DNA of 32,000 bases from Bacteriovoracia bacterium (GTDB lineage Bacteria > Bdellovibrionota > UBA1018 > JBFWNL01). How positions within the stretch are numbered: the first letter of the stretch is position 1; the number at the start of each line of letters is the position of its first letter. The translations under genes were made by a program, and so were the position numbers. Location of the stretch: contig JBFWNL010000003.1 in assembly GCA_050251055.1 (NCBI GenBank), positions 115,105-147,104 of the forward strand, in the 5' to 3' direction. Positions 5,562 to 31,123 of this stretch are shown piece by piece. The notes beneath the pieces were generated by a model. The model worked only from the letters and a program-made list of their open reading frames with translations. It searched no databases and had not been told where the DNA came from.

Positions 5562-6179
5562 CTAACTACTGAGGGCGAAGTTCGTGAAGAATACTCCCTT
5601 CACCTTTCCCGTCACCAAAAAACTATTTAATGCGTTGCGGATCTCTTCCTTGAGAAAGTCTCGTTGCTCGGGCGACGAGAGGTCGCCGGGCTTCTTGCTG
5701 TTGAACAGATCGATGATCGTATTGCGTACTTGCGGCATCTTCTGCGTGACTTCCGACTCCGTGTCGTCCGAAGGAACCTGCACGGAGATGCTCACGCGCA
5801 CGAACTTTGGATTCACGCTGCCGACGGTGGAGAGGTTGACCGTGAATTGCTCGAGCGTGACCATCTTGCCGAAATCTTGATCGCCGCCGGAATCATGGCC
5901 CTTGGCCGCTTCGCCATGACCATCTTTCGCGGCTTCGCCATGACCGCCGGCTTCGCCGTGGCCTCCCGCTTCGCCGTGGCCACCACCATGCTCATCTTCG
6001 GCGACGATGTCGTCGACCTTGGGATGGGAGTTTTCTTTTTTGAAAGAAATGAAAAGAACGCCGACCACGCCGATAGTGACGAGCAGATTCACCGCGGTCA
6101 AGATCAGTACGAGCTTATTGCCACCGCCGCCTTTACCGGCGTCGGCCGCTGCGGGTTCAGCTGCTTTTTCTTCCGACAT
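5562..6179 (-). CDS. fliL: Flagellar basal-body-associated protein FliL (with His/Gly-rich insertion)
   Basis: 205 aa with a single N-terminal TM (LVLILTAVNLLVTIGVVGVLFISF). The C-terminal FliL domain reads MVTLEQFTVNL...KFVRVSISVQV...QVRNTIIDLF...REEIRNALN. GGGAGGGG Shine-Dalgarno upstream. The gene lies directly upstream of fliM. Confidence 0.85.
   Translation of the reverse strand: MSEEKAAEPAAADAGKGGGGNKLVLILTAVNLLVTIGVVGVLFISFKKENSHPKVDDIVAEDEHGGGHGEAGGHGEAGGHGEAAKDGHGEAAKGHDSGGDQDFGKMVTLEQFTVNLSTVGSVNPKFVRVSISVQVPSDDTESEVTQKMPQVRNTIIDLFNSKKPGDLSSPEQRDFLKEEIRNALNSFLVTGKVKGVFFTNFALSS
5892..5990 (-). repeat. In-frame tandem repeat inside fliL encoding HGGGHGEAGGHGEAGGHGEAAKDGHGEAAKGHD
   Basis: Three consecutive 18-nt units (cttcgcc[a/g]tg[a/g]cc...) plus two degenerate units are visible in the DNA. 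They encode GGHGEA x3 followed by (D)GHGEAAK x2, immediately after the TM helix. Confidence 0.85.
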
Positions 6180-7842: not shown

Positions 7843-8277
7843 TCAAACAATGACCGCGCCGTCAATGTTCGTGAAAACATTGCCGTTCAATGAATTTTTA
7901 TCCATTGCGGTCACTACCGTGCGATTCGGGACATTCACGATAAATGCCGCGTCGGACGTGATCACTAACGTATCATCGATTCCCTTCGCGGCGGCCTTAT
8001 CGATCGCGCCATTGATCTTCTCCATCAAAGCCGGATCCATCGAAATCTTTCGATCGTTCAAGCGTTGATTCGCGTGCGCTGAAAACTTCAACGGCTCGCG
8101 AATCTTGGAAAGATCTTTCGCCGCGTCTTTGCCGATCTCGTTGCGGAAAACGGCATCGAATTCTCCCGGAACCGCTTTCTCCGTCTTGCCGCCGATTCTT
8201 TGTCCACGCTCGGCTTCTACGCGACCGGTTTGACTATTAAGCGAAGTTACGTTCGGGTATAAAATGGGACCGCTCAT
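7843..8277 (-). CDS. Small flagellar operon protein of the type found between flgD and flgE (TIGR02530-like)
   Basis: 144 aa. The motifs LKFSAHANQRLNDRKISM...AIDKAAAKGIDDTLVI...NRTVVTAMD...VFTNIDGAVIV match, from memory, the family seen between flgD and flgE in Firmicutes and spirochaetes. GGAAGGAGGTGA Shine-Dalgarno inside the flgD 3' end. Confidence 0.65.
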   Translation of the reverse strand: MSGPILYPNVTSLNSQTGRVEAERGQRIGGKTEKAVPGEFDAVFRNEIGKDAAKDLSKIREPLKFSAHANQRLNDRKISMDPALMEKINGAIDKAAAKGIDDTLVITSDAAFIVNVPNRTVVTAMDKNSLNGNVFTNIDGAVIV

Positions 8278-9539: not shown

Positions 9540-11159
9540 CTAAGCCATCACATCCAAGCGCCGGTCACTTTGACTGGTGCGGCTGTAAGGGCCGGCTCGC
9601 AGACCTTGGGCCCCATGGGCCGAAGATCCGCTCGCGTACGGAGACGCCTCTCGGTAATCTCTCACCGACGAGTCGTTGCCGCCGTAACCTTGGTCCTGAC
9701 GGTAACCGGAACTCCCACCGCCCATCGGGTCAAATGCGTTTTGTCCCGCGAACTGTGAAAAATCCGGTTGCCCCGACGTATTGCCGTTGGCCATCGCCAA
9801 GTTCGAACCGTGCAGGTTCGGACCCGAAGAATGGGCCGCAGCATGCGCCAGCGTCACCTCCACCTTAGCCAAGCTCAGATTCTGTTGCGCGAGGCTGTCG
9901 CGGAGATATTTCACGCTCTCCTCGATAACCTGCTTCGCCGACGGATCCGTGGCTTGGATGCGGAGGCCGACTCGATTATCGACCGTGGCAACGTGGACGC
10001 TCAGCTCGCCCAAGTTATCCGGTCGCAAGCGGATGCGGATTTCTCCGCCGCCGCGATTAGCTACCGAGCCGATCCCGTTGGATAGGCCGATCATCGATTC
10101 GGAAGACAGTCGGTCTTTGGCCCACGCTCCCTGCACCACGTGCCCCGTTACTTCCACGGGCGGGGGAGCGATGCTTCGCTCCACGCGCGCGCCGTTAAGC
10201 GCGGGATTCGCCATGTGCTGGGCGCCATCCGGGGAGAGGGGCAAGGTCGAAGGCCGCAGGCGCTTTTCACCGGTGAGCATCCGCTCGGACGTTAGCCCGT
10301 CGGCGAAGGCCGCCGACTCCGCTACCGTCATTCCCTCGCCGAGCGCGGGCTTACCGCCCGCGTTTAACGTCGAGGATCCGTTCGCGCCTCCCGCTTTCAT
10401 GCGGGCGGTCACGCGCGGATTGTCCCAAGCGCGATCCAGCTTGCCACCAAATTCGGTGGCGCCGGTCTCGGCGCCCGACTCGCGAGCCCCGTCCAAGGCG
10501 GCGAGATACTCGCCACCGGAGAGGCCAGCCCGGCTGACCGAAGCTTGGGGAGCCGATTCCGGATCCAACTCGCCCGGTAACGCGCCTTCCGCGGAGAGCG
10601 CACCCAACATCGAGTCCGCCGGATCCACGGCCTGCACCGAACCGTTGAGCTGGGCAATCCGGCTCTCTAAGCCAGAAGGCACGGACTTCGCCGTAGCCGC
10701 GTCTTGGCCCGTGAGGGCCGCGGCGCCGGCTTTGCCCGAAGGCTTGCCGATCTGGTTAGCGAGCGAATTCGTCGAGGCCATTTCCAAGCCGCTTCCCGAA
10801 GATCCGATTTTGGATAAATCGTTTCCTGCCTGACCGATCTGCTTGAGCTCGGCGGGCAAGGGTCCGGCTGACTTTGAAACTGCTTCCGCCCCCAGGGCCG
10901 ACTGGCCGTTTTGGGGAGCGTTAGCGGGTTTCTCGACTGCGTTCGTTTCCGCTTTCTGCACCGGGATCTGCGCGGCACCCGCCGTGCTCCACTGTACTAG
11001 GTCCGCCATATTCTCGGACTGTTTCAGCTGCTCGGCGAAGCCTCCGGACTTATCCGACTCCGCGGACTCCGCTCCGTTGGCCTTGGCGGACGTCTTCCTG
11101 ACTCCGCCCGTGCTTGCGTTTCCCGTGCTTACTACTGGGTTCATTGCTATTTCCATCAT
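9540..11159 (-). CDS. fliK: Hook-length control protein FliK
   Basis: 539 aa. The N-terminal two-thirds are Ala/Gly/Ser/Pro-rich and likely disordered. The C-terminal Flg_hook-type domain reads EIRIRLRPDNLGELSVHVATVDNRVGLRIQATDPSAKQVIEESVKYLRDSLAQQNLSLAKVEV. AAGGAGGTG Shine-Dalgarno. ATGA overlap with the upstream gene. Confidence 0.87.
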   Translation of the reverse strand: MMEIAMNPVVSTGNASTGGVRKTSAKANGAESAESDKSGGFAEQLKQSENMADLVQWSTAGAAQIPVQKAETNAVEKPANAPQNGQSALGAEAVSKSAGPLPAELKQIGQAGNDLSKIGSSGSGLEMASTNSLANQIGKPSGKAGAAALTGQDAATAKSVPSGLESRIAQLNGSVQAVDPADSMLGALSAEGALPGELDPESAPQASVSRAGLSGGEYLAALDGARESGAETGATEFGGKLDRAWDNPRVTARMKAGGANGSSTLNAGGKPALGEGMTVAESAAFADGLTSERMLTGEKRLRPSTLPLSPDGAQHMANPALNGARVERSIAPPPVEVTGHVVQGAWAKDRLSSESMIGLSNGIGSVANRGGGEIRIRLRPDNLGELSVHVATVDNRVGLRIQATDPSAKQVIEESVKYLRDSLAQQNLSLAKVEVTLAHAAAHSSGPNLHGSNLAMANGNTSGQPDFSQFAGQNAFDPMGGGSSGYRQDQGYGGNDSSVRDYREASPYASGSSAHGAQGLRAGPYSRTSQSDRRLDVMA

Positions 11160-11698
11160 GGTTTTTCACCTCCTTTCTGATTGGTTTCATTGTGACTTAC
11201 TTTCTTGACCTTCTTTTTCATGGCCAGCAGCTCGGTCAACTCCTTCGACCGGCTGATCTCCATGATATTGAGAATCTTGGCGAGCTTGGGCGTCGAGATG
11301 CGCTCCATGGCGGCGACCGCGAGCTCGTTCTGCAGCTTCGAAATCAGCTCGGCGGATTTTTTCGGGCTCATGGTTTCCAAGGTTTCCACGAGCTTGGCGA
11401 CCTTCTCCTCCTGCTTGCTATCCTGAACGAGCGATAACCCGGCGATCTCGGCCTTGAGAGCCTCAAGCCGCTTCATCTCGACTTCGAGCGCCTTTTTCAT
11501 GTCGGCGAGTTCCGCTTCTTTTTCTTTGAGCGCCTTCTCCTTGGCTTCCACCGCTTCTTTATTCCGCCGCAGATCCAGCAGCACGGCTTCGTCCGCCAGG
11601 CAGCCCTCCGAGTCGGGGGCGGCGAAGCTCATGGGCGCCCAAGCGGCGAAGGCTACGATCAGAAGGCCGGCGGCGATGAGGGCGATTCCGCGGATCAT
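11156..11698 (-). CDS. FlbB/YlxF-type flagellar protein (N-terminal TM, coiled coil, MgtE-N-like domain)
   Basis: 180 aa. N-terminal anchor IALIAAGLLIVAFAAWAP. Coiled coil KEKALKEKEAELADMKKALEVEMKRLEALKAE. Then KLVETLETMSPKKSAELISKLQNELAVAAMERISTPKLAKILNIM, an MgtE-N/FlbB-like helical repeat. It occupies the fliJ-X-fliK slot held by YlxF in Bacillus and FlbB in Borrelia. Confidence 0.65.
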   Translation of the reverse strand: MIRGIALIAAGLLIVAFAAWAPMSFAAPDSEGCLADEAVLLDLRRNKEAVEAKEKALKEKEAELADMKKALEVEMKRLEALKAEIAGLSLVQDSKQEEKVAKLVETLETMSPKKSAELISKLQNELAVAAMERISTPKLAKILNIMEISRSKELTELLAMKKKVKKVSHNETNQKGGEKP

Positions 11699-14378: not shown

Positions 14379-15412
14379 AGCAAGCACGCAACTTCGTCGT
14401 CGTCGCCTTGGTCTCCGCTCTTTACGCTTGCAGCGGGACCCCGCCGCCCAATCCCCTCATCATCGCCACCTGGCCGGGGTACCAAGTCCTGGAGTTGAAC
14501 GAATCGTTTACTCGGCAAACCGGAATTCCAGTCTCCGTGCGCATCTACGAATCCAACGAAGAGCTCATCGCCAAGCTCAAAGCTGGCATCGGAAACTACG
14601 ACGTGATCGTGCCTTCTGATTACGCGGTATCCACCCTGATTCGGGAAGGGTTGATCTTGCCCCTACGCCGGGAAAGCCTGCCTTTTTTGGGAATCGACCC
14701 GCGATTCCTGGACCGTACCTTCGATCCAGGCAACCAGTACTCGATTCCTTTTGCATGGGGCGTGACCGGAATCGCCTACCGGCACGACCTGTGGCCCGCC
14801 GGCGTCGCCAGCTGGAGCGATCTCTTCGGAAATCCTCGCCTGCACGATCGGTTCACCATCTTAAACGACAGCCGCGAAGCGTTGGGAGCCGCGCTTAAAG
14901 CGCAGGGAAACAGCCTTAACGCGACTAAGCGCGAAGCCCTCGAACGGGCAACCGAACGCTTGATCGCCTCCCGCCGAGCGGCCAAGGGTTTGATCATGGA
15001 CGCTACGGATCTCTTAGCGAGTGGCGAAATTGTCGCGGCCCACGCCTACTCCAATGACGCCACCCGGGCGGCGCGCGTAAGCGGGAAGCCCATTCGCTTT
15101 TCCGTGCCACGCGAGGGCGCCACGCGCTGGACCGACAGCTTGGCGATTCCCATGGGCTCCCGGCAAGTGGAAGCGGCCTATCGGTGGATACGGTTCATGT
15201 ACGAGCCCCGCCATAACCTTACCTTCGTGGACGCCACGTCCGTGGGCGCCGTACTGCTGGATACGCAGAAGAACCTTTCTCCGGAGAACCGAAGAAATCC
15301 GACGATTGTGCCCGCGCGTGATTTTGGGAAAGACTTAGAGGAAATCAAGGATCTGGGTGAGAGCCAAACCACTTGGGACCGTGCCTGGAAACGCGTACAG
15401 ATCGGCTACTAG
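14375..15412 (+). CDS. PotD/PotF-like (polyamine-type) periplasmic solute-binding lipoprotein
   Basis: I place the start at TTG 14375, with GGAGGAGG 9 nt upstream and overlap of the symporter TGA. The ORF-track start at 14153 would lie inside the symporter gene. Lipobox VSALYAC. NYDVIVPSDYAVSTLIREGLILPL and YSIPFAWGVTGIAY are typical PotD-family motifs. Confidence 0.8.
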   Translation: MKQARNFVVVALVSALYACSGTPPPNPLIIATWPGYQVLELNESFTRQTGIPVSVRIYESNEELIAKLKAGIGNYDVIVPSDYAVSTLIREGLILPLRRESLPFLGIDPRFLDRTFDPGNQYSIPFAWGVTGIAYRHDLWPAGVASWSDLFGNPRLHDRFTILNDSREALGAALKAQGNSLNATKREALERATERLIASRRAAKGLIMDATDLLASGEIVAAHAYSNDATRAARVSGKPIRFSVPREGATRWTDSLAIPMGSRQVEAAYRWIRFMYEPRHNLTFVDATSVGAVLLDTQKNLSPENRRNPTIVPARDFGKDLEEIKDLGESQTTWDRAWKRVQIGY

Positions 15413-15427: not shown

Positions 15428-16789
15428 CTAACTTCGATACGCATCGCCGGCCCGGCTGATCGCCAACATCATGGCTTGCGCCTCCGGCAACCGCACCACG
15501 TCTTCCACGCCTTGGCGCAGGAACTGCGTGATCCGATCGTTAAGCTGCACCGCCTGGTCGATCTTGGGGTTGCTCCCTTTCACGTAGGCGCCGATGTTAA
15601 TCAAGTCCTCGGACTGATTGTACACCGCCATCCACTCCCGGATCTGGGAAGCGTGCCGTCGTTGATCGGGCGTGGCCACGGTGGACATCAGGCGGCTGAC
15701 GCTCTGGAGAACATCGATGGCAGGATAATGATTCCGCTCGGCGAGGCGGCGGGTAAGCACGATGTGGCCGTCGAGGATCGAGCGGGCGGCATCGGCGATG
15801 GGATCGTCCATGTCGTCGCCCTCTACCAGCACGGTATACAGGCCGGTGATGCTGCCCCGGTCCTTGGCCGTCCCCGCGCGCTCCAGGAGCTTGGGGAGCG
15901 TCGAAAAAACGCTGGGCGTGTAGCCCTTGGAAGCGGGAGGCTCTCCCAGGGAAAGGCCGATCTCCCGCTGAGCCATGCAAAAACGAGTGACCGAATCCAT
16001 AAGCAAAAGCACGTCTTGGCCCTGGTCTCGAAAATACTCGGCGATCGTCGTGGCGAGAAACGCCCCGCGCATGCGAATCAGCGGTGCGGTGTCGGAAGTG
16101 GCTACCACGACCACCGATCGGCGTAGGCCTTCTTCGCCCAAATCGCGCTCGATGAACTCCCGAACCTCGCGCCCGCGCTCACCGATGAGGGCGATCACGT
16201 TCACGTCCGCGGCGGTGTTTTTGGCCATCATGCCCAGTAAAACCGACTTGCCTACGCCGGAGCCGGCGAAAACGCCTACCCGCTGACCCTTACCGCAGGT
16301 GAGGAGTCCGTCGATCGCCTTCACGCCCAAGCTCAAAGGATCCTTGATCCGCTCTCGACTCAAAGGATCCGACGGCCGTTGGTAAAGACCACGTTCTTCG
16401 TGCGGCACTCCGTCCAGGATCAGAGGGCCCTTGCCGTCGATCGGAAATCCGCGGGCGTCGATCACGCGTCCCAAGAGGCTTTGGCTGACGGACATCGTGG
16501 AGACGCGCTTCTTCAGCACGACCAGGCTATCGTTATTCACGCCGCGCACATCCTCGAACGGCATGAGCATCACGCGCTTGTCGCGAAAGCCAATGACTTC
16601 AGCGTCGATACCCTGGTCTTCGGCACGCTCATGCGAAGTGTGGATGCGGCAGAGACTCCCAATGGCCGCGCCGGGCAGGGTCGCTTCGTAGACCAGGCCT
16701 AATGATTTCGTGAGCTTGCCCGCCTCGTGATAGATCAAAGCGGATCCGAGCCGATCTTGGTACTTGCGGGCGGGAATGGACCAACTCAC
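15428..16789 (-). CDS. fliI: Flagellum-specific ATPase FliI
   Basis: Walker A is GVFAGSGVGKSVLLGMM and Walker B is VLLLMDSVTRF. The protein shows F1-beta-like architecture. The likely start is GTG 16789, preceded by AGGAG 8 nt upstream right after the fliH stop. The ORF is open up to 16879, which would overlap fliH by 79 nt. Confidence 0.95.
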   Translation of the reverse strand: MSWSIPARKYQDRLGSALIYHEAGKLTKSLGLVYEATLPGAAIGSLCRIHTSHERAEDQGIDAEVIGFRDKRVMLMPFEDVRGVNNDSLVVLKKRVSTMSVSQSLLGRVIDARGFPIDGKGPLILDGVPHEERGLYQRPSDPLSRERIKDPLSLGVKAIDGLLTCGKGQRVGVFAGSGVGKSVLLGMMAKNTAADVNVIALIGERGREVREFIERDLGEEGLRRSVVVVATSDTAPLIRMRGAFLATTIAEYFRDQGQDVLLLMDSVTRFCMAQREIGLSLGEPPASKGYTPSVFSTLPKLLERAGTAKDRGSITGLYTVLVEGDDMDDPIADAARSILDGHIVLTRRLAERNHYPAIDVLQSVSRLMSTVATPDQRRHASQIREWMAVYNQSEDLINIGAYVKGSNPKIDQAVQLNDRITQFLRQGVEDVVRLPEAQAMMLAISRAGDAYRS

Positions 16790-16800
16790 CGAATTTTCTC

Positions 16801-17652
16801 CTAACCGCCGGAGGCGCTTTGCAGCGCCTCGTGAATGCTCTTCAGCTGGGTTTCGATGCTGGCGTCGATCGCGTTCCACTCGGTTTCCACGATGCAGCCG
16901 CCACCGCGAACGTCCGCCGAAGCTTCGATACGCAGGTTCTTTGTTTCGCCCAGGTTTTTCTGGAGATCTTCCTTGAGGATCTCCAGGCTCTTCATGTCAC
17001 TGGGGTTGATCAGGATCGTGACATTTTCGCGGGTACCGATCCGTTCGATCAGCTGCGCGGCGAGCTTCGACACCACCGTGGGATCCGCTTGCAGCTCCTT
17101 TAGCAACAGCGTCTTGGCGACCTGGAATACGATCTCTACCAATACCTTTTCGTTTTCTTCGAAAATCTTGGCCTTCGCGCCCTCGAGCGACCGTAAAAGC
17201 TCGTCGAACTTCTTGACCCGATCCGTACCCTCGGCCCGAAACTTCATGAAGGCTTCTTCGTATCCTTTTTTCAGTCCTTCTTCGTACCCTCGTGCGTCGG
17301 CCTGCTTGCGTACGTCGTCCTCGACCTGCTTCACGCGATTGGTGACGCGCTCTTCGATCACCCGTTTTTCCTCTTCCTCCACCGAAAGGGGCCCGCGCAG
17401 CAACGGGTTGAGGGTGAACCGCGAATCTTTTTGAGTCTTCGCCTTGCGCTCGACGTCGGTTGCCGCCAAAGGCCCATACTTCGCCTTGATCTGGGAGTAG
17501 GTTTGGCCGCTCCGTTTGTCGAGCTTCTCCATGCGGTAAGGCTGCGGCTCCGTGGCCTGGGCCATGGGCTTCATCACCCGGACCGCCTCGGAGCTTTCTC
17601 CGGCGGCTCCCTCCGATTGCACCTGAAATGGCTGAAATTTGGTGATCGCCAT
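16801..17652 (-). CDS. fliH: Flagellar export protein FliH (FliI regulator/stator)
   Basis: 283 aa. A charged coiled-coil centre (EEEEKRVIEERVTNRVKQVEDDVRKQADARGYEEGLKKGYEEAF) is followed by a C-terminal FliH domain (ILINPSDMKSLE...GGCIVETEWNAIDASIETQL). The gene lies between fliG and fliI. Confidence 0.87.
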   Translation of the reverse strand: MAITKFQPFQVQSEGAAGESSEAVRVMKPMAQATEPQPYRMEKLDKRSGQTYSQIKAKYGPLAATDVERKAKTQKDSRFTLNPLLRGPLSVEEEEKRVIEERVTNRVKQVEDDVRKQADARGYEEGLKKGYEEAFMKFRAEGTDRVKKFDELLRSLEGAKAKIFEENEKVLVEIVFQVAKTLLLKELQADPTVVSKLAAQLIERIGTRENVTILINPSDMKSLEILKEDLQKNLGETKNLRIEASADVRGGGCIVETEWNAIDASIETQLKSIHEALQSASGG

Positions 17653-17680
17653 CGACTATGCCTTTCCCTTACGCCCGGGC

Positions 17681-18694
17681 TTACACCAGGGCGTCCGCCT
17701 CGCCGCCGCGGGCGATGAGGATCTTGCCCTCTGCCTCCAGCCGCTTGGCCACGTTGACGATTTCCTGCTGGGCCGCCTCGACGTCGGAGAGACGCACCGG
17801 TCCCATCGCTTCCAGGTCCTCGCGCAGCAAATCGGCCGCGCGCTTGGAGATGTTCTTGAAGATCTTTTCCTTGATCTCCTCGGGAGCGGTCTTGAGCGCG
17901 ATGACGAGCTTGTCGTTCGGCACTTCCTTGAGCAGCACCTGCATGCCACGGTCGTCGATGAAGATAATATCCTCGAAGACGAACATGAGCTTGCGGATTT
18001 CCTCGGCCAGCTGCGGGTCTTTTTCTTCGACGCGGGCCATGATGTTTTGCTCGGTGTTCTTATCCATGACGTTGAGCATCTCGGCGATCGGCTGCACGCC
18101 GCCCAGTTGCTGGGTGTCGATCGAACCCAAGGTCGCCAACTCTTGCTTAAGCACCTCGTCGACCTGCGCAATGAGGGTCGGCGAGATATAGTCGAGGTTT
18201 GAAATTCTGAGCACAACCTCGGTCTGGATCGCTTCCGGCAGGCGTTTGAGCACGTCGCACTTCTTGCCCGCCTCCAAGTGAGCCAGGATAAGGGCAATCG
18301 TCTGCGGGTGTTCGTTGACCAAGAAGTTCGAGAGCGTGCGCGGGTCGACCAGCTCGAGCGCCTCGAGCGTCCGGCTGCCCTCGACCACGGAAAGTTGGCC
18401 TAGCACCGTTTTCGCCCGCTCTTCGCCCAAGGTCTCTAAGACGAAGTCGCGTCCCTGCGCGTGGCCGAAGATCAGGATGTCCTGCTCCGCGATTTCGGTA
18501 TAAAAATTTTCGAGTACCTGCTTAACCAGCGGGATCGGGACTTTGGTGACCTTGCCCATGGCGGTGACCAACAACTTCACGTCGTTGTCCTTCATGTTCT
18601 TGAAGACCTGGGCCGTGACGTGATTGCCCAAGACGTTGAGCAATACCGCCGCCTTCTCCATCCCCGTCATGCTGGCTAACGCATCCGCGCTCAT
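17681..18694 (-). CDS. fliG: Flagellar rotor/switch protein FliG
   Basis: 337 aa. GMEKAAVLLNVLGNHVTAQVFKNM..., the EHPQTIALILAHL motif, MFVFEDI, and the C-terminal torque-helix region RAADLLREDLEAMGPVRLSDVEAAQQEIV. Confidence 0.96.
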   Translation of the reverse strand: MSADALASMTGMEKAAVLLNVLGNHVTAQVFKNMKDNDVKLLVTAMGKVTKVPIPLVKQVLENFYTEIAEQDILIFGHAQGRDFVLETLGEERAKTVLGQLSVVEGSRTLEALELVDPRTLSNFLVNEHPQTIALILAHLEAGKKCDVLKRLPEAIQTEVVLRISNLDYISPTLIAQVDEVLKQELATLGSIDTQQLGGVQPIAEMLNVMDKNTEQNIMARVEEKDPQLAEEIRKLMFVFEDIIFIDDRGMQVLLKEVPNDKLVIALKTAPEEIKEKIFKNISKRAADLLREDLEAMGPVRLSDVEAAQQEIVNVAKRLEAEGKILIARGGEADALV

Positions 18695-18706
18695 AGCACC
18701 CTCTCC

Positions 18707-20395
18707 TTACGCGGTTTTATCCGCGCCGTCCTTAGCTTCTTCGCCTTCCGGCGCCTTCTTCTCCCCGCGTACCCAGTCGCGAAGGATCAACGCCGCTTTG
18801 TGCGGATTGGCGTCGACCAAGGTTACGATCTTCTCCTTGATCATCTCGCCTTCGATTTTTTCCGGGTCAATCTGCTCTGGCAACTCCGGGACGACTTCGT
18901 CTACCGGCAGATTTTGGGCTTTCTGCAACTTCTCAAGCTCCTCGATCGTCTGCGGCAAGAACGTGTCCACGCTGTCGGTGGTGTTCTCGGTGACCCACTT
19001 GATGAACGGGCGAATGACGAACAGGAAGAACAAGATGATCAACAGGCCGATGACGGAGTAAACCATCATGTTCTGGAGATAGCTGCGACGCTCGCTGTCT
19101 TGGATCTGCTTTTCAGCCTCCGAGAAGTCCGCGCGGTTGAATTCCATGTTCTTGATCTGGATCGTGTCCCCTCGTTTGGGGTTTAAGCCCACGGCGCCCG
19201 CGATGATCTGCTCGAACTCCTTCAACTTATCTTCCGACCACGGTTCCACCTTCGCCTTCGCGTCGGGCTTCTCCGGATCTTTTACCTGTCGGCCATCGAC
19301 CACCACGGAAACCGAGAGCCGCGAGACCGTTCCGGACGGTTTCCGCGTCTGGCGGATGGTCTGCGGTACCTCGAAATTCGTCGTTTCGTGGACCTTCTGG
19401 GTATCCGTCTTGACTTGCGCGGCTTGCACGCCCGGCTGCTCGCCGGGGGTATTCGCGCGAACGCCGGCTACCCCGCCCGGCGCGGGACGGCTACCGGACA
19501 TCGAATCGTTATTTTTATAGGCCGAACGCACCGCGGAACCGTCGGCGTCGAAAGTCGTCTGGGTCTCGCTCACCTGGGAAAAATCCAGCTCCGCGCTCAC
19601 GCGGGCGACGACGTGCCCTTCGCCCACGACGGGAGACAGCATCTCCTCAACCCGCTTCTCCATGCTTTCTTCGAGCTTCCGGCGAAAATCAAGCTGGGTG
19701 GCGCTGGCTTGCACCAGCGGGTCACGCGTATTTTCGGAAAGAGTCCGCCCCGTCGAGTCAACGATCACGACCTTGCCGATATCTAGGCCTTCGACGGCGC
19801 TGGCGACAAGATTTCCGATGCCAAAAACTTGCTTCTCCGAAAGACGAACGCTGGGCTCGAGGTCGAGCACCACCGAAGCGGTCGGCTCCTTCTGATCCTG
19901 AATGAACGTGCTTTCCTTAGGGATAGCGAGGTGCACGCGCGCACGTTTCACGCCTTTGATGGCGCCGATCGTCCGCATCAGCTCGCCTTCTTTCGCGCGC
20001 AGCATGTTGATGCGTTGGACGAGACTAGTGGTCCCTAGGGACTGGTGGTCGAACACCTCATAACCCACGACGCTCGATTGCGGCAATCCCAAGGTCGCCA
20101 GCTCCATGCGCAGGTCGAACACGCTCTCCGGCGGAATCTCGATATTGCGTCCACTCTGGTCCACCTTGAAGGGGATCTGCTTTTGGCGCAGGACGCGCAT
20201 GACGTTGGCGGAGTCCTCCGGGTTGAGGTTGGTCATCAAGGGTCGGTAAGTCTGACTGCCCGCCCATTGGAACATCGCGAACACCCCGGCCAGCACCGCC
20301 ACGGACACCACGCCTAACGCAAGCTTGCGACCCGGGCTCAGCGCCGTGAAAAACTCGCCCAGCTGCCGAAAAACTTTCTTGAAATACTCGGTCAC
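18707..20395 (-). CDS. fliF: Flagellar MS-ring protein FliF
   Basis: 562 aa. N-terminal TM (LALGVVSVAVLAGVFAMF). YscJ/FliF ring-building motifs (LMTNLNPEDSANVMRVLRQKQIPFKVD..., ELMRTIGAIKGVKRARVHLAIPK). A second TM near residue 445. C-terminal FliG-binding tail. Confidence 0.96.
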   Translation of the reverse strand: MTEYFKKVFRQLGEFFTALSPGRKLALGVVSVAVLAGVFAMFQWAGSQTYRPLMTNLNPEDSANVMRVLRQKQIPFKVDQSGRNIEIPPESVFDLRMELATLGLPQSSVVGYEVFDHQSLGTTSLVQRINMLRAKEGELMRTIGAIKGVKRARVHLAIPKESTFIQDQKEPTASVVLDLEPSVRLSEKQVFGIGNLVASAVEGLDIGKVVIVDSTGRTLSENTRDPLVQASATQLDFRRKLEESMEKRVEEMLSPVVGEGHVVARVSAELDFSQVSETQTTFDADGSAVRSAYKNNDSMSGSRPAPGGVAGVRANTPGEQPGVQAAQVKTDTQKVHETTNFEVPQTIRQTRKPSGTVSRLSVSVVVDGRQVKDPEKPDAKAKVEPWSEDKLKEFEQIIAGAVGLNPKRGDTIQIKNMEFNRADFSEAEKQIQDSERRSYLQNMMVYSVIGLLIILFFLFVIRPFIKWVTENTTDSVDTFLPQTIEELEKLQKAQNLPVDEVVPELPEQIDPEKIEGEMIKEKIVTLVDANPHKAALILRDWVRGEKKAPEGEEAKDGADKTA

Positions 20396-20427
20396 TTTAC
20401 GCTCCTATTTCCTAAAATTACCCGCTA

Positions 20428-20844
20428 CTAAACCTGCATCCTCATGATTTCGCGGTAGGCGTCGAGCACCTTGTTCCGCACCTGCATCATGAGTTTCAAC
20501 GACATTTCCGCCTTCTCCACGGCGAGCATCGTTTCATGCACATTCTTCGTTCGACCCGCGATAAGCTCCTTCATCGCGCTGTCCGCCTGCACCTGCGTCG
20601 AATTCACGTTTTCGAGCGTCCGCTGCAACATCTGCGCGAACCCGTCGGTCATGCCGCCTTTGGCGGCGGCCGGGTCGACGGCGCCGGGAGCGCCCATCAA
20701 TCCTTCGAGACCATCCGATACCTGCATGCCTTGGCGACGCATCTCCTCCATCACGCGGCGGTCGCTCATGGGCGAGGTGCCGCCCAAAGCGTCACCCTTC
20801 CAACCGCTCAGCTGATCGATGTTCTCCAACCGTAAATCGTTCAT
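20428..20844 (-). CDS. fliE: Flagellar hook-basal body protein FliE (N-terminally extended)
   Basis: The C-terminal FAQMLQRTLENVNSTQVQADSAMKELIAGRTKNVHETMLAVEKAEMSLKLMMQVRNKVLDAYREIMRMQV is the FliE domain. At 138 aa the protein is ~35-40 aa longer than typical. TAATG overlap with flgC. Confidence 0.9.
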   Translation of the reverse strand: MNDLRLENIDQLSGWKGDALGGTSPMSDRRVMEEMRRQGMQVSDGLEGLMGAPGAVDPAAAKGGMTDGFAQMLQRTLENVNSTQVQADSAMKELIAGRTKNVHETMLAVEKAEMSLKLMMQVRNKVLDAYREIMRMQV

Positions 20845-21287
20845 TATCTACCGATCTCCAACGCTTTTTGGGCCATGGCCTTGGCCGCGTTCAACGTGTT
20901 CACGTTGGCGTCGTAAGAACGCTGGGCGCTGATCATATTCGCCATTTCCTCGACCGTGTTGACGTTCGGCATGGCGACATACCCTTCCTCGTTGGCGTCC
21001 GGGTGCGAGGGGTTGTAGACCATCCGCGGAGGACGCGTATCCTCGGCGATTTCGGTCACCTGCACGCCCTGGACGTTTTCATCCATGGCCGACTGAAGAA
21101 TCTCGCCGAAGCTCTCCCGATCGACCTGCGCCTCCAAGACCGGATCGCGCCGTTTGTAGGGGGCGATATTCCCGTCGGCGTCGCGGGTGGTTTCCGCGTT
21201 GGCCACGTTGCTCGAAATCGTATTTAGCCGCTTGGTTTGGGCTTCCAAACCGGAAGCGCTCACGCGCATGGACGAGAAGAAATCCAT
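20844..21287 (-). CDS. flgC: Proximal rod protein FlgC
   Basis: MRVSASGLEAQTKRLNTISSNVANAETTR and the C-terminal VEEMANMISAQRSYDANVNTLNAAKAMAQKALEIGR are FlgC signatures. Confidence 0.96.
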   Translation of the reverse strand: MDFFSSMRVSASGLEAQTKRLNTISSNVANAETTRDADGNIAPYKRRDPVLEAQVDRESFGEILQSAMDENVQGVQVTEIAEDTRPPRMVYNPSHPDANEEGYVAMPNVNTVEEMANMISAQRSYDANVNTLNAAKAMAQKALEIGR

Positions 21288-21703
21288 TAGTTGCTACCTC
21301 CGCCTTCCGAGATCCCGTACTTCAGCATTCCGAGCTTCTTTTTGAGTAGCTCCACGGACGCGTTGTACATGATTTGGTTTTCCGTGGATTTGGCCATCTC
21401 GGCGGAGCGATCGACGGTGTTCCCGTCGAGCGATTCCACCCCGTTGGGGTCCTCCACGATTTCAGGATGAATGGGGTCGAGTTCCTTCGGAACCTGGTGT
21501 CCCGCGTGCGTCTGCTCGGGCCGAATCCCTTCGCCGACGTCAAGCGCTTCCCGTAACGCGGTCTCGAACTCCAGCTTCTTCGCCTTGTAATTCGGCGTGT
21601 CCGCGTTTGCGATGTTCGAGTTGATCACGTTCTGATTCACCATCCGCGCGTTCAAAGACGTATTCAGCGCGCCGATGGTGGAATCGAAAAGCTTATTGGA
21701 CAT
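21287..21703 (-). CDS. flgB: Proximal rod protein FlgB
   Basis: LNARMVNQNVINSNIANADTPNYKAKKLEFE and the C-terminal NQIMYNASVELLKKKLGMLKYGI are FlgB signatures. GAAGGGGGA Shine-Dalgarno. Confidence 0.95.
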   Translation of the reverse strand: MSNKLFDSTIGALNTSLNARMVNQNVINSNIANADTPNYKAKKLEFETALREALDVGEGIRPEQTHAGHQVPKELDPIHPEIVEDPNGVESLDGNTVDRSAEMAKSTENQIMYNASVELLKKKLGMLKYGISEGGGSN

Positions 21704-21724
21704 AGTCCCCCTTCAACCCAATAT

Positions 21725-21739
21725 TCAAGTTACATGCCG
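21725..21739 (-). promoter_or_regulatory. Weak sigma-54-like element upstream of flgB
   Basis: The minus strand reads cGGCATgtaacTTGAa. GG and TTG are correctly spaced, but the invariant -12 GC is GA. It lies only ~21 nt before the flgB ATG, implying a very short leader. Confidence 0.25.
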
Positions 21740-21844
21740 CGTTCGCCGATACTCAGCGCGGCATTACGCGGTAACGAAAATACTTTTCCCCCTAGAACTA
21801 GGCGTTTTTTTCCGCCACGTTCACGTCCGGGTAAAACCTGCCGA

Positions 21845-22810
21845 CTAGACCTGAATGCCGATCTTGCGGTAATCCGAAAGCTTATTACGCAAGGTACGAA
21901 TCGAGATACCCAACGCCCGCGCCGTGTGCGTGCGGTTTCCGTTGTGGTACTGCAACGCCTCGAGAATCACGGAGCGCTCGATGTCGTTCAGCGTCTGACC
22001 TGGATTCCAGCTATAGCTTTCCGATCCCTCTTCGCCGGCCGCCAAGCCCGCGGCATCTTCGCGGTACTCGATCATGATGTCGCCATGGCCGATGGACGCG
22101 TCTTTGGCCGTGATGATCGAACGCTCGATCACGTTTGCGAGCTCACGAATATTACCCGGCCAGGCGTAAGCTTCGAGCTTAGCGAGGGCTTCCGGGGAGA
22201 ACGGTAGCGCGGGCCGACCATTTTTCTGCGAATACTGACCCACGAAGTACTCCGCGAGGTTCTTCACGTCGCCAATGCGGTCACGCAGCGGAGGCAAGGT
22301 GAGGTTTACCACGTTCAGGCGGTAATACAGGTCTTCGCGGAAAGTGCCTTCGGTAACGCAGCTAGCAAGATTCTTGTTCGTCGTCGCGATGATGCGGACG
22401 TCCACGGCGATGGGTTTACGGCCGCCGATCCGATCCACTTCGCCTTCTTGGATCACGCGCAATAGTTTCGCTTGGAGACGGATGTCCATCTCGGAAATTT
22501 CATCGAGCAGCAACGTGCCGCCGTTGGCGATTTCGAACTTACCCGCTTTGGCGTTCACGGCACCCGTGAAGGCCCCCCGCTCATGGCCAAACAGTTCCGA
22601 CTCGAGCAGATTTTCCGGTATCGCGGCGCAGTTGATCGCCACGAAGGGACGGTTGGCACGCGAGCTGTTCTGATGGATCAGGTTCGCCATCACTTCCTTG
22701 CCCGTGCCGCTTTCGCCCTGGATCAGCACGGTGGCCTTGCTCTGGGCGACCGTCTTCGCCAATTGAATCATCTCGCTCATCTTACGGTCCGCAGTGATCA
22801 GATCGTTCAT
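21845..22810 (-). CDS. Sigma-54-dependent transcriptional activator (AAA+ plus Fis-type HTH only; no receiver or sensory domain)
   Basis: Walker [12 protein letters not shown] begins ~30 aa from the N-terminus. [15 protein letters not shown] is the GAFTGA sigma-54 contact loop. The C-terminal HTH reads [21 protein letters not shown]. The start is set at ATG 22810, which has GGGAGGG 5 nt upstream. The ORF-track TTG at 22840 adds only 10 aa. Confidence 0.9.
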
Positions 22811-22841: not shown

Positions 22842-25703
22842 TTAGTTTTCCGTTCTCTCTAACGCTTCCTGCGCTAATTTCTTCCAAGCGACGTCGCCGT
22901 CTTTGGTGCCTAGAATTTCCTTTAATGTCTGTACGGCCTTTTCCCGGTCATTCTCCTTGCCGGTTTTTCCCAGCACGCGGGCATAGCCGTAAAGCAGCTG
23001 GTCGTTACGCGCGCCCTGGGCAATCGCGTTCGCGAAAGCGCCGGCGGAGTCGGCGTAGTTCGCCGTGCGCTCCAACAACTCCGCTTCCTTGATAAAAAGT
23101 TCGGCCAAGCTCGGCAGACGGGGCACGCCCATGCCGACCAAGCCACGATTCGAATCCGGCGCGGCGGCCGCGAGCTTACGCTCGGCATCTTTAGAAGAAA
23201 TCGCCGGACCTTCCGGGTAGCCGGCGCGAATTTCCTGAATCGACTTGATGGCGCCGGGCAGATTCCCCGCCTTTTCCTGCAACGTCGCCACCCAGTAATC
23301 CAGCTGGCGATCGATCGTGGCTGAGCGCTTCGCGAAAAGCAGCTTAGCGCGCGCTACTCGGGTCATCGCCCGCTCCGGCTGGCCCTTGCGCTCGTCCATT
23401 AAGGCGTTCAAAACCTCTTTTTCCTGTGAATAAGGCGAGTCTTCGGAAACGCGGCCCAGGTAAGTACGAAGCTTCTCTTCCCACTTCAAGCCCCCGTCCA
23501 ACCAAAGCGCCTTAGCGTGGGTGAAAGCTTCTTCAGAACGGCGAAAGCGCTCGGTGACGTCGTCGTCCGCGGGATCCAAACCCGCGCCGCCAGCCGAGGT
23601 AGCGAGCTGGCGCCCATCCTTGGCGCTCCCGGTTTCGCCCTTCGCCTCGGTTGACGTACCCAGTCGCTTTTCGTAGGTGGAAACGATCTTCAAGGAAAGC
23701 GAGCCCAGCCCCAGATCGGAAGCCGCCTGCGCCAGCTTCAGCAAATAGTCCGACGTGATGGGGTCCTTATCACCCGGGACGATCGCGGCATACTTGTCGT
23801 AGAACGAAAGCGCCGCGAGCTGGTTTCCCGCGTCCAGGCGCTTCAAGATCTCTTTGCGGAATACGAAGCGGGAGAAATCGCTTAAGATCTCCCGCGCCGT
23901 CTGCCCAACGCGTCCCCGGAAGATCTCGGCGATCGTCTCGACGGCTTCGCCCTCGTAACCCATCATGACCAGCGTCCGCACGCGCGAGAGCGCGAGCAGA
24001 TCAGGGTAGTCATTCATCCACACCTGACTGGCGGCCAACGTCGAAGCAGCGAAGGCTTTAGCGTCACCCTCAAAATACTTTTTAGCGCCCTCATAAGTGA
24101 ACCCTCCGTGATCGCCGCAGGGAAGCAAGCGCAGCCGAGCGAGGGTCGCGCCCGGACTGATCGGGTGGTTATTCACGGTTTGATAGAGCCATTTACGAGC
24201 CTCGGCCTTGGCGCCGACTTCCGAATGCCGGTCATAGATCTCCGCCAACCGGTAAGAAGCCATCCAGCCCGCGCGATGCGAAGGGAAGCGGGTCAAGAAC
24301 GCTTTGAACTCCTCCTCCGCACGATCAAACTGCCCCAGCCAGTAAATCGCCTCCGCGCGATTCAGGTACACCTCCGGCAAGGTCGCGGCTTCTTTCTCGA
24401 AGTGCTTGAGGCCCGTGAAGTAGGCGGCGAGCGCCTGGGCGTATTGCTGGCGCTCAAGATAGAGGTCCCCGATGCTCAGGCCCGCGCGGGCACGCACGAC
24501 GGGGTCCTGCGCATTTTCGGCCACCCACTGATACTCCTCCGCGGCCCGAGCGGTCTGCTTCAGCATGAACAGGCACTCGGCCGAGGCCAACCGAAAGAGC
24601 CAGTTGAGCCGGTGGCTAGGATAGTTACGCGATAGACTAATGAAGTTCTCAAGGGCAGCCAGGTACTCGGCGTTTTGATAACGTTTGGCCGCCACGAATA
24701 ACCCAGCATGCAGCCCTACCGGAGAACCCTTCGCAGTGACCGAAAGATCATGGAAGATGCGGTTCGCGTCGTCCTGCAGCCCCAGCTTCACGAGCGCGTT
24801 GCCCCGCAAGAAATGCATTTCATTACGATAGGACGACTTGGGGTATTCCGTGTCGAGGAACTCGATCGTCCGGATGGCTAGCGCGGGCTTGCCCTGGCGG
24901 TAAAGGGACAACGCCAGGCGCACGTATTGGGCGTCTTTTTCGTCGCCCTTTGGCTCGAGGTACGGATAATCGCTATCGGGGGTCGTTAGCGAGAACCACT
25001 TCCCGAAATCGATCGGCACATGAACCGCCCGGAAGCGCACGAAGATGTCGTTCTGGGTGTTGACGGGTTCTTGACAGTATTTTTGGGTGTCCGCCGCATC
25101 GAGCTCCTTCTTCAAGGTGGCGATGCGCCGCTGCACCTGGCGCTTGGCTTTTTCTTCGGATTTCTTTCGAAGCGTGTATTTTTTGGCGCGCTCTCGTTCG
25201 GCCACCACTTGGGCATGCGTGGGACCCGGCTTCACCCAAAAATCGACCACGAATCGAGACGGGGTCTTTTCCCGGAACTCGAAAGTTTCCATCTGGGGCT
25301 GAAACGGAGCTTCCGGCCCGGTGGGAAACTTCCACGCGCCGGTCACCACCACTCCCGCCTCGGTTTCCGCTACTTTCAGATCGCCCAGGCGGGCGTCCCT
25401 TAAGTCGCTCAATCCCGTCAACCAACGCGCTTCCCCACCAAAGGGAGCCCCCAGATCCACGAGCCCCAGCTCCTTGAAGACCAGTTCGAACCCCTGGGCG
25501 GTGCTTCTCCACTCCGCCTTCACGCCGGAATCAACCCGGAAGACCAGTCGGGAGTGAGTATTGAAAGTTTGGATGGAGATGGCGCGATCGGTCCAGGCTG
25601 GGGCCCCGTGCGCGAACGCCGGCGCCAACGCCATGACAAAGATCAGAAGGTAACGTACCCAGTTGAAGAGCATCCTGCTCATGTTCCTCAGTTTTCGCCC
25701 CAC
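22842..25703 (-). CDS. Large secreted protein: N-terminal beta-rich (AMIN-like) domain, basic coiled linker, long TPR/helical-repeat array
   Basis: 953-aa ORF with GTG at 25703; alternative ATGs at 25682 and 25673. Signal peptide [17 protein letters not shown]. Beta-rich region [36 protein letters not shown]...SRFVVDFWV. Charged helix [33 protein letters not shown]. Then many TPR-like units, for example [51 protein letters not shown] and [26 protein letters not shown]. Its stop lies 1-30 nt from the activator gene start. Confidence 0.8.
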
Positions 25704-25753: not shown

Positions 25754-25769
25754 AGCAAACCCAGTGCCA
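25754..25769 (-). promoter_or_regulatory. Consensus sigma-54 (-24/-12) promoter for the TPR-activator(-flgB...) operon
   Basis: The minus strand reads TGGCAC-TGGGT-TTGCT, a full match to TGGCAC-N5-TTGC(A/T). It lies 52 nt upstream of GTG 25703, in the correct orientation, in a 267-nt divergent intergenic region. Confidence 0.75.
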
Positions 25770-25970: not shown

Positions 25971-26525
25971 ATGCCCCACCGCTTCCCTCGCTTCGCCGTC
26001 GCGGCCGCCGCGATCGCCCTGGGCGCGCTCTCCTCCGGATGCAGCGTGCTCATTGGCAATGTGAAGCCCGTCGCCGAACATGCGGACGGCTACACGGTGG
26101 CGGAACTCCCAAAGCAAGATGCGAACTGGGCGCCGATCGAACAAGATCCCGGCGCGCCTTCCGATCCCCAGGTGTCCGACTACGCCTACCAATCCAAGCG
26201 GACCGCCTCGATCATCTCGCTCACCACGAACTGTCGTAAGCGAAACGTGGATGAGCCCAAGAACCTCCAGGAGCTGACAAACCTTCTATACATGGGCGTG
26301 GCGAACATCACCGATCGCAACGAGAAGAATTTGACGATCCGGGGCACGCCCGCGCTCGAAACCACCCTGCGCGGAAACCTGAACAACCAGGACATGATGT
26401 TCCGGACCGTGGTCATGCGTCGGGACACCTGCATCTTCGATTTCATGTACATCGCTCGACCGAAGCACTTTCCCGAAGAGGAAAAAACGTTCGGTGAATT
26501 TATTGCCTCCCTGAATTTCAAATAG
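25971..26525 (+). CDS. Hypothetical lipoprotein
   Basis: 184 aa. Lipobox in AAAAIALGALSSGC. I recognise no family. It lies immediately upstream of the Mla-like genes, with a 32-nt gap. Confidence 0.6.
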   Translation: MPHRFPRFAVAAAAIALGALSSGCSVLIGNVKPVAEHADGYTVAELPKQDANWAPIEQDPGAPSDPQVSDYAYQSKRTASIISLTTNCRKRNVDEPKNLQELTNLLYMGVANITDRNEKNLTIRGTPALETTLRGNLNNQDMMFRTVVMRRDTCIFDFMYIARPKHFPEEEKTFGEFIASLNFK

Positions 26526-30007: not shown

Positions 30008-31123
30008 TTAGGCGGAGCCGCTCATGCTGCCCATGTCCATCTCGGCGCCTTCGCGATTCTTCGCGGCCGGGACGATCATGCCGCGCTTGCGGAGTTTTTC
30101 CACAAGCGTGGTGCGGTTCATGCGGAGCAGTTCCGACGCCCGGTTCTTGTTTCCTTGCGTGCGGGCCAAAGCCTGGTCGATCAGGTGGTTCTCGAAAGCG
30201 GCGACGATGGCCTTGAGGTCCACGCCGACGTTCGGGAGCACCATGCGCGGGAATTCGTTTTCCGAGAAATCGGAGACGGCGCCCGTGCCGGCTGGCTTGG
30301 TTTCGGTGAACTTGCGGAAAATGCGGTGAGGCAGATCGCCCAAGTCGACGGAGCCTTGACCCTTCAGGATCACCAGGCGTTCGATCAGGTTCTCGAGCTC
30401 ACGGACGTTGCCCGGCCAGTCGTAGGCCATCAACGCTTCCATGATCTGGCCGCTCGGGGCTTCGACGTTGTGACCGGTCATCGAGTTGAACTGGGCGATG
30501 AAGTGATTCACGAGCAGTGAGATGTCTTCCTTGCGCTCGCGCAGGGCCGGAATCTTCACGGGGATCACGTTCAGGCGATAATACAGGTCTTCGCGGAATT
30601 CTTTCTTCTGGACAGCCTCTTCCAGGTTGGCGTTCGTCGCCGCGATGATGCGAACGTCGGCTTGAATGGTCTTCGAGGAGCCGACTTGCTCATACTGGCG
30701 GGTCTGAAGCACGCGCAACATCTTCACCTGAAGGTGAAGGGGAAGGTCGCCCACTTCATCCAAGAAAAGCGTGCCGCCTTGGGCCGCTTCGAAACGGCCG
30801 ATGCGGTTTTGGGTCGCGCCGGTGAAGGCACCCTTCACATGACCAAAAAGCTCGGCTTCCAGTAGCTCGCCGGGTATGGCGCCGCAGTTCACGATCACCA
30901 GCGGCTTGGTCGCGCGCGTGGAATTTTCGTGGATGGCGCGGGCGACGAGCTCTTTGCCCGTGCCGCTTTCACCAGTAATTAGCACAGTGCTGTCGCTCTG
31001 CGCTACTTTCTGGATCGTACCCATGATGTTCTGGATTGCTTGGCTGTCCCCAACAAATAACGATTTCAAACTGAGCATCAATGCCCCCCTTTGACCCTTC
31101 CGTGAGTAACGTTTGAGTGTCAT
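30008..31123 (-). CDS. Sigma-54-dependent transcriptional activator (AAA+ plus HTH only), FleQ/FlrA-like C-terminus
   Basis: Walker [12 protein letters not shown], then EAELFGHVKGAFTGA (GAFTGA loop), then the C-terminal HTH GNKNRASELLRMNRTTLVEKLRKRGM. ATG 31123 has no obvious Shine-Dalgarno. The alternative ATG 31078 is preceded by AGGGGGG. With either start, fewer than 50 aa precede the AAA+ core. Confidence 0.9.
   Translation of the reverse strand: MTLKRYSRKGQRGALMLSLKSLFVGDSQAIQNIMGTIQKVAQSDSTVLITGESGTGKELVARAIHENSTRATKPLVIVNCGAIPGELLEAELFGHVKGAFTGATQNRIGRFEAAQGGTLFLDEVGDLPLHLQVKMLRVLQTRQYEQVGSSKTIQADVRIIAATNANLEEAVQKKEFREDLYYRLNVIPVKIPALRERKEDISLLVNHFIAQFNSMTGHNVEAPSGQIMEALMAYDWPGNVRELENLIERLVILKGQGSVDLGDLPHRIFRKFTETKPAGTGAVSDFSENEFPRMVLPNVGVDLKAIVAAFENHLIDQALARTQGNKNRASELLRMNRTTLVEKLRKRGMIVPAAKNREGAEMDMGSMSGSA

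Follow-up and report, generated by a model that had tools for sequence, protein, structure and literature searches.

The closest described counterparts of the protein analysed here belong to the flagellar motor's periplasmic scaffold. In Campylobacter jejuni, dimers of FlgY encircle the MS-ring, and the spoke protein PflA comprises a beta-sandwich of four antiparallel pairs, like the AMIN domains of PilQ, followed by a loop and 17 tetratricopeptide repeats (TPRs) (PMC11870540). The motor of Bdellovibrio bacteriovorus contains an E-ring and, in association with the inner membrane, a 12-fold ring. Chaban et al. 2018 (PMC5758724) described a PflA-like protein in a flagellar operon of this species (WP_011165745.1), without sequence homology to PflA, and speculated that it forms the 12-fold inner-membrane-associated ring of their subtomogram average; Drobnic et al. 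2025 restate this proposal. Feng et al. 2025 (PMC11870540, Supplementary Table 5) list one "potential PflA" TPR protein of 882-951 aa per genome in six cultured Bdellovibrio, Pseudobdellovibrio, Bacteriovorax and Halobacteriovorax, and proteins of 891-928 aa beside shorter TPR proteins in Silvanigrellales-type genera. Here, a 953-aa TPR protein from an uncultured Bdellovibrionota lineage is compared with these systems. Its gene lies in the window, a 32,000-nucleotide stretch of contig JBFWNL010000003.1 (Bacteriovoracia bacterium, assembly GCA_050251055.1), where it heads a presumed flagellar operon (Table 1). The product is read as a PflA-like soluble periplasmic accessory protein of the flagellar motor, a spoke or ring component, with a probability of about 0.6.

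Several features lead to this reading: the architecture of the AlphaFold2 model; the rank of PflA as its first Foldseek match; the putatively AMIN-like N-terminal domain; the export signature and a near-invariant pair of cysteines; the linkage to a sigma-54 activator and flagellar genes behind a sigma-54 motif; and a FlgY/FlbB-like gene in the same cluster. The 12-fold ring and E-ring of B. bacteriovorus, together with the proposal of Chaban et al., point in the same direction.

The AlphaFold2 model, built from 38 homologues, has a mean predicted local distance difference test score (pLDDT) of 87.3. It places an eight-stranded, putatively AMIN-like beta-sandwich of four hairpins behind the signal peptide, followed by a single long basic helix, a conserved linker and an alpha-solenoid of about 18 TPR-like helical hairpins, whose approximately 36 helices run to residue 953 with two disordered loops. 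The initial annotation, made from the sequence alone, had proposed this order of parts: its signal peptide, basic linker and TPR array of about 700 aa are borne out, and its beta-rich domain returns with eight strands, at a size of about 116 aa in place of the proposed approximately 130 aa. Pfam recognizes TPR families alone, in residues 250-510 and 880-950, with TPR_16, TPR_6, TPR_21 and TPR_14 scoring over their cut-offs; Pfam and NCBIfam scans of the protein found no enzymatic or other non-TPR domain. The best-conserved parts are the beta-domain, the linker and the solenoid's first half.

Comparison of the full model with the PDB, a check of the kind that the initial annotation had suggested, returns C. 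jejuni PflA as the top solved-structure match (chain 9hmf_K, E 7e-13). This chain, of 773 residues, corresponds to PflA 16-788 of the periplasmic scaffold as modelled by Drobnic et al. 2025. The next matches are generic eukaryotic TPR superhelices such as Ski3, Ctr9 and IFT-A, at about 4e-10, approximately three orders of magnitude weaker. The N-terminal region was also modelled alone (residues 36-215, pLDDT 90). Its top Foldseek match is Escherichia coli AmiC (4bin; E 2.8e-3, probability 1.0, 123 columns, 4.1 Å), the N-terminus of which is an AMIN domain, and its third match is again PflA 9hmf_K (E 0.079, probability 0.84). A PflB-like identity was considered and rejected: a transmembrane anchor and a mid-chain beta-pair are both lacking, and PflB is absent from the top 50 PDB matches. 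FlcA and FlcB are likewise not among the top 50 PDB matches, which involved no direct comparison with either protein.

The export signature is shared by the family. N-termini combine a basic n-region with a hydrophobic run of 13-20 residues and with small residues at positions -3 and -1. The window protein lacks a lipobox cysteine at the end of its signal peptide, and the model shows neither a second hydrophobic helix nor a beta-hairpin inside the solenoid. The sequence thus indicates a cleaved Sec signal peptide, which would leave a soluble mature protein of 922 aa (103 kDa).

A second indication of the periplasm comes from two cysteines. Among 137 full-length family members spanning 21-100% identity, Cys210 in the linker (motif FC..P) and Cys529 in a solenoid loop are both present in 136; the sole exception has neither, and the median mature protein contains exactly two cysteines. 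A pair that is near-invariant, lost jointly and generally the only one in the chain argues for location in the oxidising periplasm, and we infer a conserved periplasmic Cys210-Cys529 disulfide. The positions of the two residues suggest that this bond would pin the linker to the solenoid's middle part.

The genetic linkage is equally consistent across the family. As the initial annotation stated, and as the open reading frame, motif and Pfam data confirm, the gene is first behind a sigma-54 promoter element and is followed by an activator gene and flgB-fliI. The promoter element, TGGCACTGGGTTTGCT, is an exact match to the consensus TGGCAC-N5-TTGCT, lies approximately 50 nt upstream of the gene and is the sole match in the window at one mismatch or fewer. 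The chance expectation for such a match in the window is 0.73, and the single match is by itself not significant, but TGGCAY-N5-TTGC is found at the equivalent place in 53 of 73 orthologous loci. The 953-codon open reading frame begins with GTG, and in-frame ATGs at 25682 and 25673 are alternatives; the annotation of an identical database protein (P0001) takes the second of these, beginning at M11. The mature protein is unchanged by this choice. The activator ATG lies 31 nt past the stop codon of the TPR gene, preceded by a ribosome-binding site (GGGAGGG-N5), with no terminator-like site in the gap; relatives show an overlap of 4 or 20 nt between the two genes.

That the gene is real is supported by its homologues: 42 full-length sequences at 31-46% identity in a word-indexed search, and 314 cluster representatives at E<=1e-30 in an exhaustive profile search. 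A motif scan of species-representative genomes placed the family in 77 genomes, essentially all of them metagenome-assembled genomes (MAGs) of Bdellovibrionota, from Bacteriovoracaceae, Bdellovibrionia and Oligoflexia. Four contigs with a Bdellovibrionota-type Mla/TPR/activator/flgB locus come from MAGs labelled Lysobacteraceae, Bryobacterales or "Proteobacteria" (L058, L078, L060, L079) and are probably mis-binned or mislabelled.

Counting loci with sufficient flanking sequence, the sigma-54 activator is directly downstream on the same strand in 68/68 and flgB is next after the activator in 61/61. On the other flank, a divergent lipoprotein gene is upstream in 60 of 61 loci and mlaEFD in 58 of 61. 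Three loci (L028, L029, L064) have lost the Mla neighbour and retained the flagellar one. Members at no more than 21-25% identity keep the same gene order, and in a distant subclade the pair is followed by HD-GYP, PALP, glycosyltransferase and flagellin genes in place of flgB. What stays constant is the pairing of the TPR gene with the activator, and the pair has a flagellar neighbourhood in every case. No copy remote from flagellar genes was seen among the loci inspected; the initial annotation had named conserved orthologues in non-flagellated relatives as evidence against a motor role. The TPR protein evolves faster than its neighbours, with a best identity of 46% compared with 88% for FliG and 82% for FlgC, as is typical of accessory scaffolds. 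As a separate observation, an HD_5 (HD-GYP-like) gene is inserted between the activator and flgB in L085 and L086; this and the HD-GYP gene of the distant subclade hint at a link between cyclic di-GMP turnover and the TPR-activator locus.

A candidate partner is encoded in the same cluster. The initial annotation had pointed to a FlbB/YlxF-like gene, and this assignment is in line with a Pfam MgtE_N match (E 2e-4) and with the sole NCBIfam match, a weak one to collar_FlbB at 18.9 bits, under its cut-off. The predicted protein has a signal/transmembrane segment, a coiled coil and an ARM/MgtE_N-like region; sequence searches found no solved homologue. Its gene position, between fliJ and fliK, and its features fit the description by Feng et al. 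of FlgY/FlbB/MotE E-ring proteins, and it is presumed to be the E-ring partner of the TPR protein. FliL is a possible interaction partner by analogy with the contact between the PflA AMIN domain and FliL (PMC11870540).

The published Bdellovibrionota proteins are the nearest comparison. The B. bacteriovorus protein (WP_011165745.1/WP_157865726.1, 926 aa) and the other "potential PflA" entries come from the same phylum, fall in the same length class, occupy the same position and are described as PflA-like in domain architecture and encoded in a flagellar operon. In Bdellovibrio and Pseudobdellovibrio the listed protein is ten accession numbers from the FlgY homologue, and in Halobacteriovorax vibrionivorans nine (PMC11870540); the ten-accession spacing matches the gene spacing in the window. 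The window protein differs in coming from an uncultured lineage, and its nearest relative is no more than 46% identical. Homologue searches with a broadened profile or with a distant member (P0151) returned none of the named cultured-species proteins, and a locus from a MAG labelled "Bacteriovorax stolpii" (L044) encodes a protein of about 921 aa, compared with the 951-aa published entry. The assembly identifiers of the distant family members have no counterpart in the table of Feng et al. Because the motif scan returned no cultured Bdellovibrio, the published proteins are probably among the members at 21-25% identity. On phylum, position, length and architecture, orthology to them is very likely.

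Feng et al. class single-copy TPR proteins adjoining flagellar genes as PflA-like spokes where there are at least three consecutive TPR motifs, no enzymatic domain and a location within five genes of a flagellar cluster in a genome with FlgY (PMC11870540). The window protein has the repeats and lacks an enzymatic domain, and its gene is two genes upstream of flgB. By sequence and model it is also predicted to be secreted and soluble, with a signal peptide, no transmembrane anchor and no beta-pair of the PflB type. Thus the periplasmic scaffold put forward in the initial annotation, of the PflA/FlcA type, is favoured computationally, while its description as new to the literature does not stand, the idea having been published for Bdellovibrionota relatives (Chaban et al. 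2018; Feng et al. 2025). What is new is how broadly and strictly the TPR-activator pair is linked to flagellar genes, the conservation of the sigma-54 promoter, the putative assignment of an AMIN-like N-terminal domain backed by PflA as top match, and the near-invariant cysteine pair.

The likeness to PflA of C. jejuni and Helicobacter pylori extends over the whole chain: signal peptide, eight-stranded sandwich of four hairpins (putatively AMIN-like in the window protein), linker and approximately 16-18 TPRs. PflA genomes and the window genome alike encode a FlgY-type E-ring protein. In contrast, the Cys210/Cys529 pair is a feature of the window family, the window gene has a sigma-54 promoter element in front of it and leads a presumed flgB operon, an arrangement that pflA does not share, and the PflB, PflC/D and cage genes of the Campylobacter-type system are not seen here. 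Other systems are likened by description alone. MotK of Cereibacter sphaeroides Fla2 (described as AMIN plus TPR), MotC of Sinorhizobium meliloti and CC_2058 of Caulobacter are periplasmic TPR proteins that act with a MotE/FlgY-type protein and the stator, in another phylum and another gene context. Borrelia FlcA and FlcB are TPR-rich, periplasmic, dependent on the FlgY homologue FlbB and required for stator assembly, in a collar that is far larger and contains at least five proteins.

Several points weigh against a PflA-like spoke or ring. No homology to PflA, or to another flagellar scaffold protein that has been characterised, is detectable from sequence: a profile search of PDB chain sequences, a set that should include PflA entries such as 9hmf, gave generic TPR matches alone and no PflA at E<=1, and a search with the N-domain profile gave nothing. 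Neither 21 N-domain sequences nor the window N-domain matches AMIN (PF11741) at E<=10, and the Foldseek E-values of this domain are marginal. The template modelling (TM) scores to PflA are low (0.26/0.30), and TPR solenoids match one another promiscuously; low TM-scores are expected for long flexible solenoids, and the first place of PflA is a ranking argument, not proof. The window protein is approximately 165 aa longer than PflA and carries the long 42-residue basic helix after its beta-domain. The strongest curated-model match is tol_pal_ybgF (TIGR02795), at 67.1 bits against a cut-off of 90.1 (E 2e-18). Synteny is frozen on both flanks, with Mla in 58/61 loci, making the flagellar linkage less specific than it appears. 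A PflB-like partner was not identified, orthology to the published B. bacteriovorus protein is presumed, and the literature searched contains no experiment on any Bdellovibrionota family member.

Some of these points bear on a different role within the flagellum. The protein could be a flagellum-associated periplasmic factor for assembly or targeting: a motor-protein chaperone, the role first proposed for MotE with MotC; a factor for the sheath or the enlarged P/L rings; or an adaptor for peptidoglycan remodelling or pole targeting that acts through the AMIN-like domain. Such a factor would account for the linkage and export evidence just as well; AMIN domains bind peptidoglycan, TPR arrays serve as interaction platforms in general, and B. 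bacteriovorus carries a sheath and enlarged P/L rings whose composition is not known (PMC5758724). However, the whole architecture and the best structural match are those of PflA, a structural spoke; a chain of about 103 kDa with about 18 repeats suits a fixed-length spacer over a chaperone; and a FlgY-like E-ring partner is present. An assembly or targeting role is therefore considered unlikely, although it deserves some weight.

The tol_pal_ybgF match raises the further question of whether the protein belongs with general envelope TPR proteins such as CpoB/YbgF, BamD or LapB, serving Mla or Tol-Pal, with the flagellar neighbourhood as inherited gene order. BamD is the next NCBIfam model (36.7 bits against a cut-off of 81.4), Pfam YfiO (19.3 bits against 25) and CpoB/YbgF chains in the PDB match weakly, some sources name homologues "TolA-binding protein" or "BamD", and Mla adjoins the gene in nearly all loci. 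CpoB/YbgF also shares repeats of the TPR_6 type with the window protein, and Drobnic et al. 2025 speculate that PflA and PflB themselves arose through co-option of YbgF. Yet the curated-model matches all fall under their cut-offs and are local, spanning merely 80-120 TPR residues; the confident assignment to a non-flagellar TPR family that the initial annotation had held to be damaging thus did not emerge. CpoB, encoded in a tol-pal operon, has a coiled coil and three TPRs in about 260 aa, and BamD/YfiO is a lipoprotein of about 245 aa with a lipobox, whereas the window protein is three to four times as long, has a putatively AMIN-like domain and no lipobox, and has no tol-pal genes nearby. 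Its gene runs in the same direction as a flagellar activator gene, to which it is coupled, and a conserved sigma-54 promoter stands in front of the two; where the Mla linkage is gone the flagellar one is kept, and flagellin adjoins in the rearranged subclade. A general envelope function is accordingly improbable. A role as a PilF-type secretin pilotin was also rejected: the secretin and T2SSE genes lie on the far side of Mla at a distance of 8-10 kb, and the TPR protein is no lipoprotein.

A role as regulatory partner of the activator, with the protein as a periplasmic sensor or checkpoint component that signals the state of the envelope or of assembly to flagellar gene expression, is very improbable: the TPR-activator pair is invariant (68/68) even where flgB is not adjacent and the control of the receiver-less activator is unexplained, but a protein predicted to be soluble and periplasmic, with no transmembrane segment after cleavage and no sensor-type domain in Pfam or NCBIfam, could not plausibly contact a cytoplasmic AAA+ protein without a transducer.

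If the PflA-like reading is correct, the gene would be transcribed from the sigma-54 promoter as the first gene of an early flagellar operon, co-expressed and probably translationally coupled with the FlbD-like activator, and co-expressed with the MS-ring, rod and export genes; for this reason the protein would be present when the basal body forms. Just above the inner membrane, the TPR superhelix would build radial spokes or else a ring. Its inner end may dock on the coiled coil of the FlgY/FlbB-like E-ring protein, and its outer end, formed by the AMIN-like domain, may touch FliL, the periplasmic domain of MotB and/or peptidoglycan. These contacts would keep the number of stator units around the rotor fixed, probably at 12 as in the B. 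bacteriovorus motor. The Cys210-Cys529 disulfide would staple the linker onto the middle of the solenoid and stiffen the molecule. Localisation to the motor, binding partners, stoichiometry and the effect on stators are what we infer by analogy with C. jejuni/H. pylori PflA, MotK/MotC and FlcA/B.

Should this hold, the family would identify the 12-fold inner-membrane-associated ring seen by cryo-electron tomography in the B. bacteriovorus motor. Stator scaffolding by an E-ring and TPR spokes would then reach another phylum with a simpler set of parts than in Campylobacter, which bears on an ancient versus convergent origin of stator scaffolds. Since the idea has been published before, the gain is incremental; in practice, the family offers a sharply delimited candidate for work in a genetically tractable predator, marked by its conserved cysteines and FlgY-like partner.

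The near-invariant cysteine pair and the conserved linker also allow a more speculative extension, which is doubtful at best. The linker after the AMIN-like domain may be stapled in cis to its own TPR solenoid, an intramolecular counterpart of the "wire-wrapped pendant" in which a PflA loop wraps around PflB. A single polypeptide would then be both spoke and rim: a minimal, possibly ancestral, single-component stator scaffold forming a 12-fold ring, from which PflA and PflB could have diverged.

Table 1. Positions of the features discussed, in window coordinates except where a locus of a relative is named.
Feature	Position	Strand	Basis
Gene for AMIN-like plus TPR protein (PflA-like candidate), 953 aa	22842..25703	-	Open reading frame call, Pfam, homologues, AlphaFold2
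Sec-type signal peptide, residues 1-31, predicted cleavage AFA/HG	25611..25703	-	Sequence inspection
Eight-strand beta-sandwich, putatively AMIN-like, four hairpins, residues 42-157	25233..25580	-	AlphaFold2 (pLDDT ~90), Foldseek
Single long basic helix, residues 163-204	25092..25217	-	AlphaFold2; 14 K/R and 6 D/E in 42 residues
Conserved linker, residues 205-255, with Cys210 (codon 25074-25076)	24939..25091	-	AlphaFold2, alignment
Alpha-solenoid, ~18 TPR-like helical hairpins, residues 256-953, with Cys529 (codon 24117-24119)	22845..24938	-	
Sigma-54 type -24/-12 promoter element	25754..25769	-	Exact consensus, conserved among relatives
Sigma-54 activator, FlbD-like, 321 aa, AAA+ and helix-turn-helix, no receiver domain	21845..22810	-	Pfam, NCBIfam
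Activator-flgB gap, 141 nt	21704-21844	-	
flgB, flgC, fliE, fliF, fliG, fliH, fliI	15428..21703	-	Pfam
SBP_bac_3 (282 aa), sodium:dicarboxylate symporter (415 aa), SBP_bac_8 (419 aa)	12286-15412	+	
FlgY/FlbB/MotE-like gene, 180 aa, between fliJ and fliK	11156..11698	-	Pfam MgtE_N (E 2e-4)
Small FlbD-type gene, between flgD and flgE	7843-8277	-	Pfam PF12611 (Flagellar_put)
fliL	5562..6179	-	Pfam
fliO, 407 aa	2750-3973	-	
Divergent lipoprotein gene, 184 aa, lipobox LSSGC	25971-26525	+	
Second sigma-54 activator, 371 aa, AAA+ and helix-turn-helix, no receiver domain	30008-31123	-	
Distant-subclade loci	L087 6001-9677; L088 7990-11666; L089 10001-13710		

The remaining genes of the window complete the picture of the cluster. 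After fliI, the minus strand continues with fliJ, the MgtE_N/FlbB-like gene, fliK, flgD, the small FlbD-type gene, flgE and fliL, and the series closes with fliM, fliN, fliO, fliP and fliR (Pfam). The gene content given in the initial annotation is therefore correct, although the cluster is not continuous: three transporter genes on the opposite strand split it between fliI and fliJ. The placement of a FlbD-type gene between flgD and flgE, together with that of a FlgY/FlbB-like gene between fliJ and fliK, is an order typical of spirochaetes and Firmicutes. The FliO protein is unusually long. Its FliO domain, at residues 232-319, comes after an N-terminus resembling a signal peptide, about 100 aa of beta-rich sequence and a low-complexity Ala/Lys/Pro linker; neither Pfam nor hhalign supported the proposal that the 260-aa N-terminal extension forms a second AMIN-like domain.

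The activator downstream of the TPR gene has Caulobacter FlbD as its top curated model; the alignment begins at model position 118, and the protein therefore lacks a receiver domain. Between the activator and flgB, the intergenic stretch has a GC-rich inverted repeat (GCCGCG...CGCGGC) and no sigma-54 consensus. The divergent lipoprotein gene upstream of the TPR gene is the first gene of the mlaEFD operon, and its product has a sub-threshold PsbP_2 match and no other family assignment. Past the Mla operon is the second sigma-54 activator gene, a counterpart of which occupies the same relative position in many relatives. Two receiver-less activators flanking the region suggest a two-tier sigma-54 cascade.

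The cargo at the fliI/fliJ junction varies among relatives: nothing in L081 and L082, a 406-aa gene with a faint Peptidase_C1 match alone in L003, and AAA_14 and DUF4423 genes in L001. With the three transporter genes in the window, this junction looks like a recurrent insertion point.

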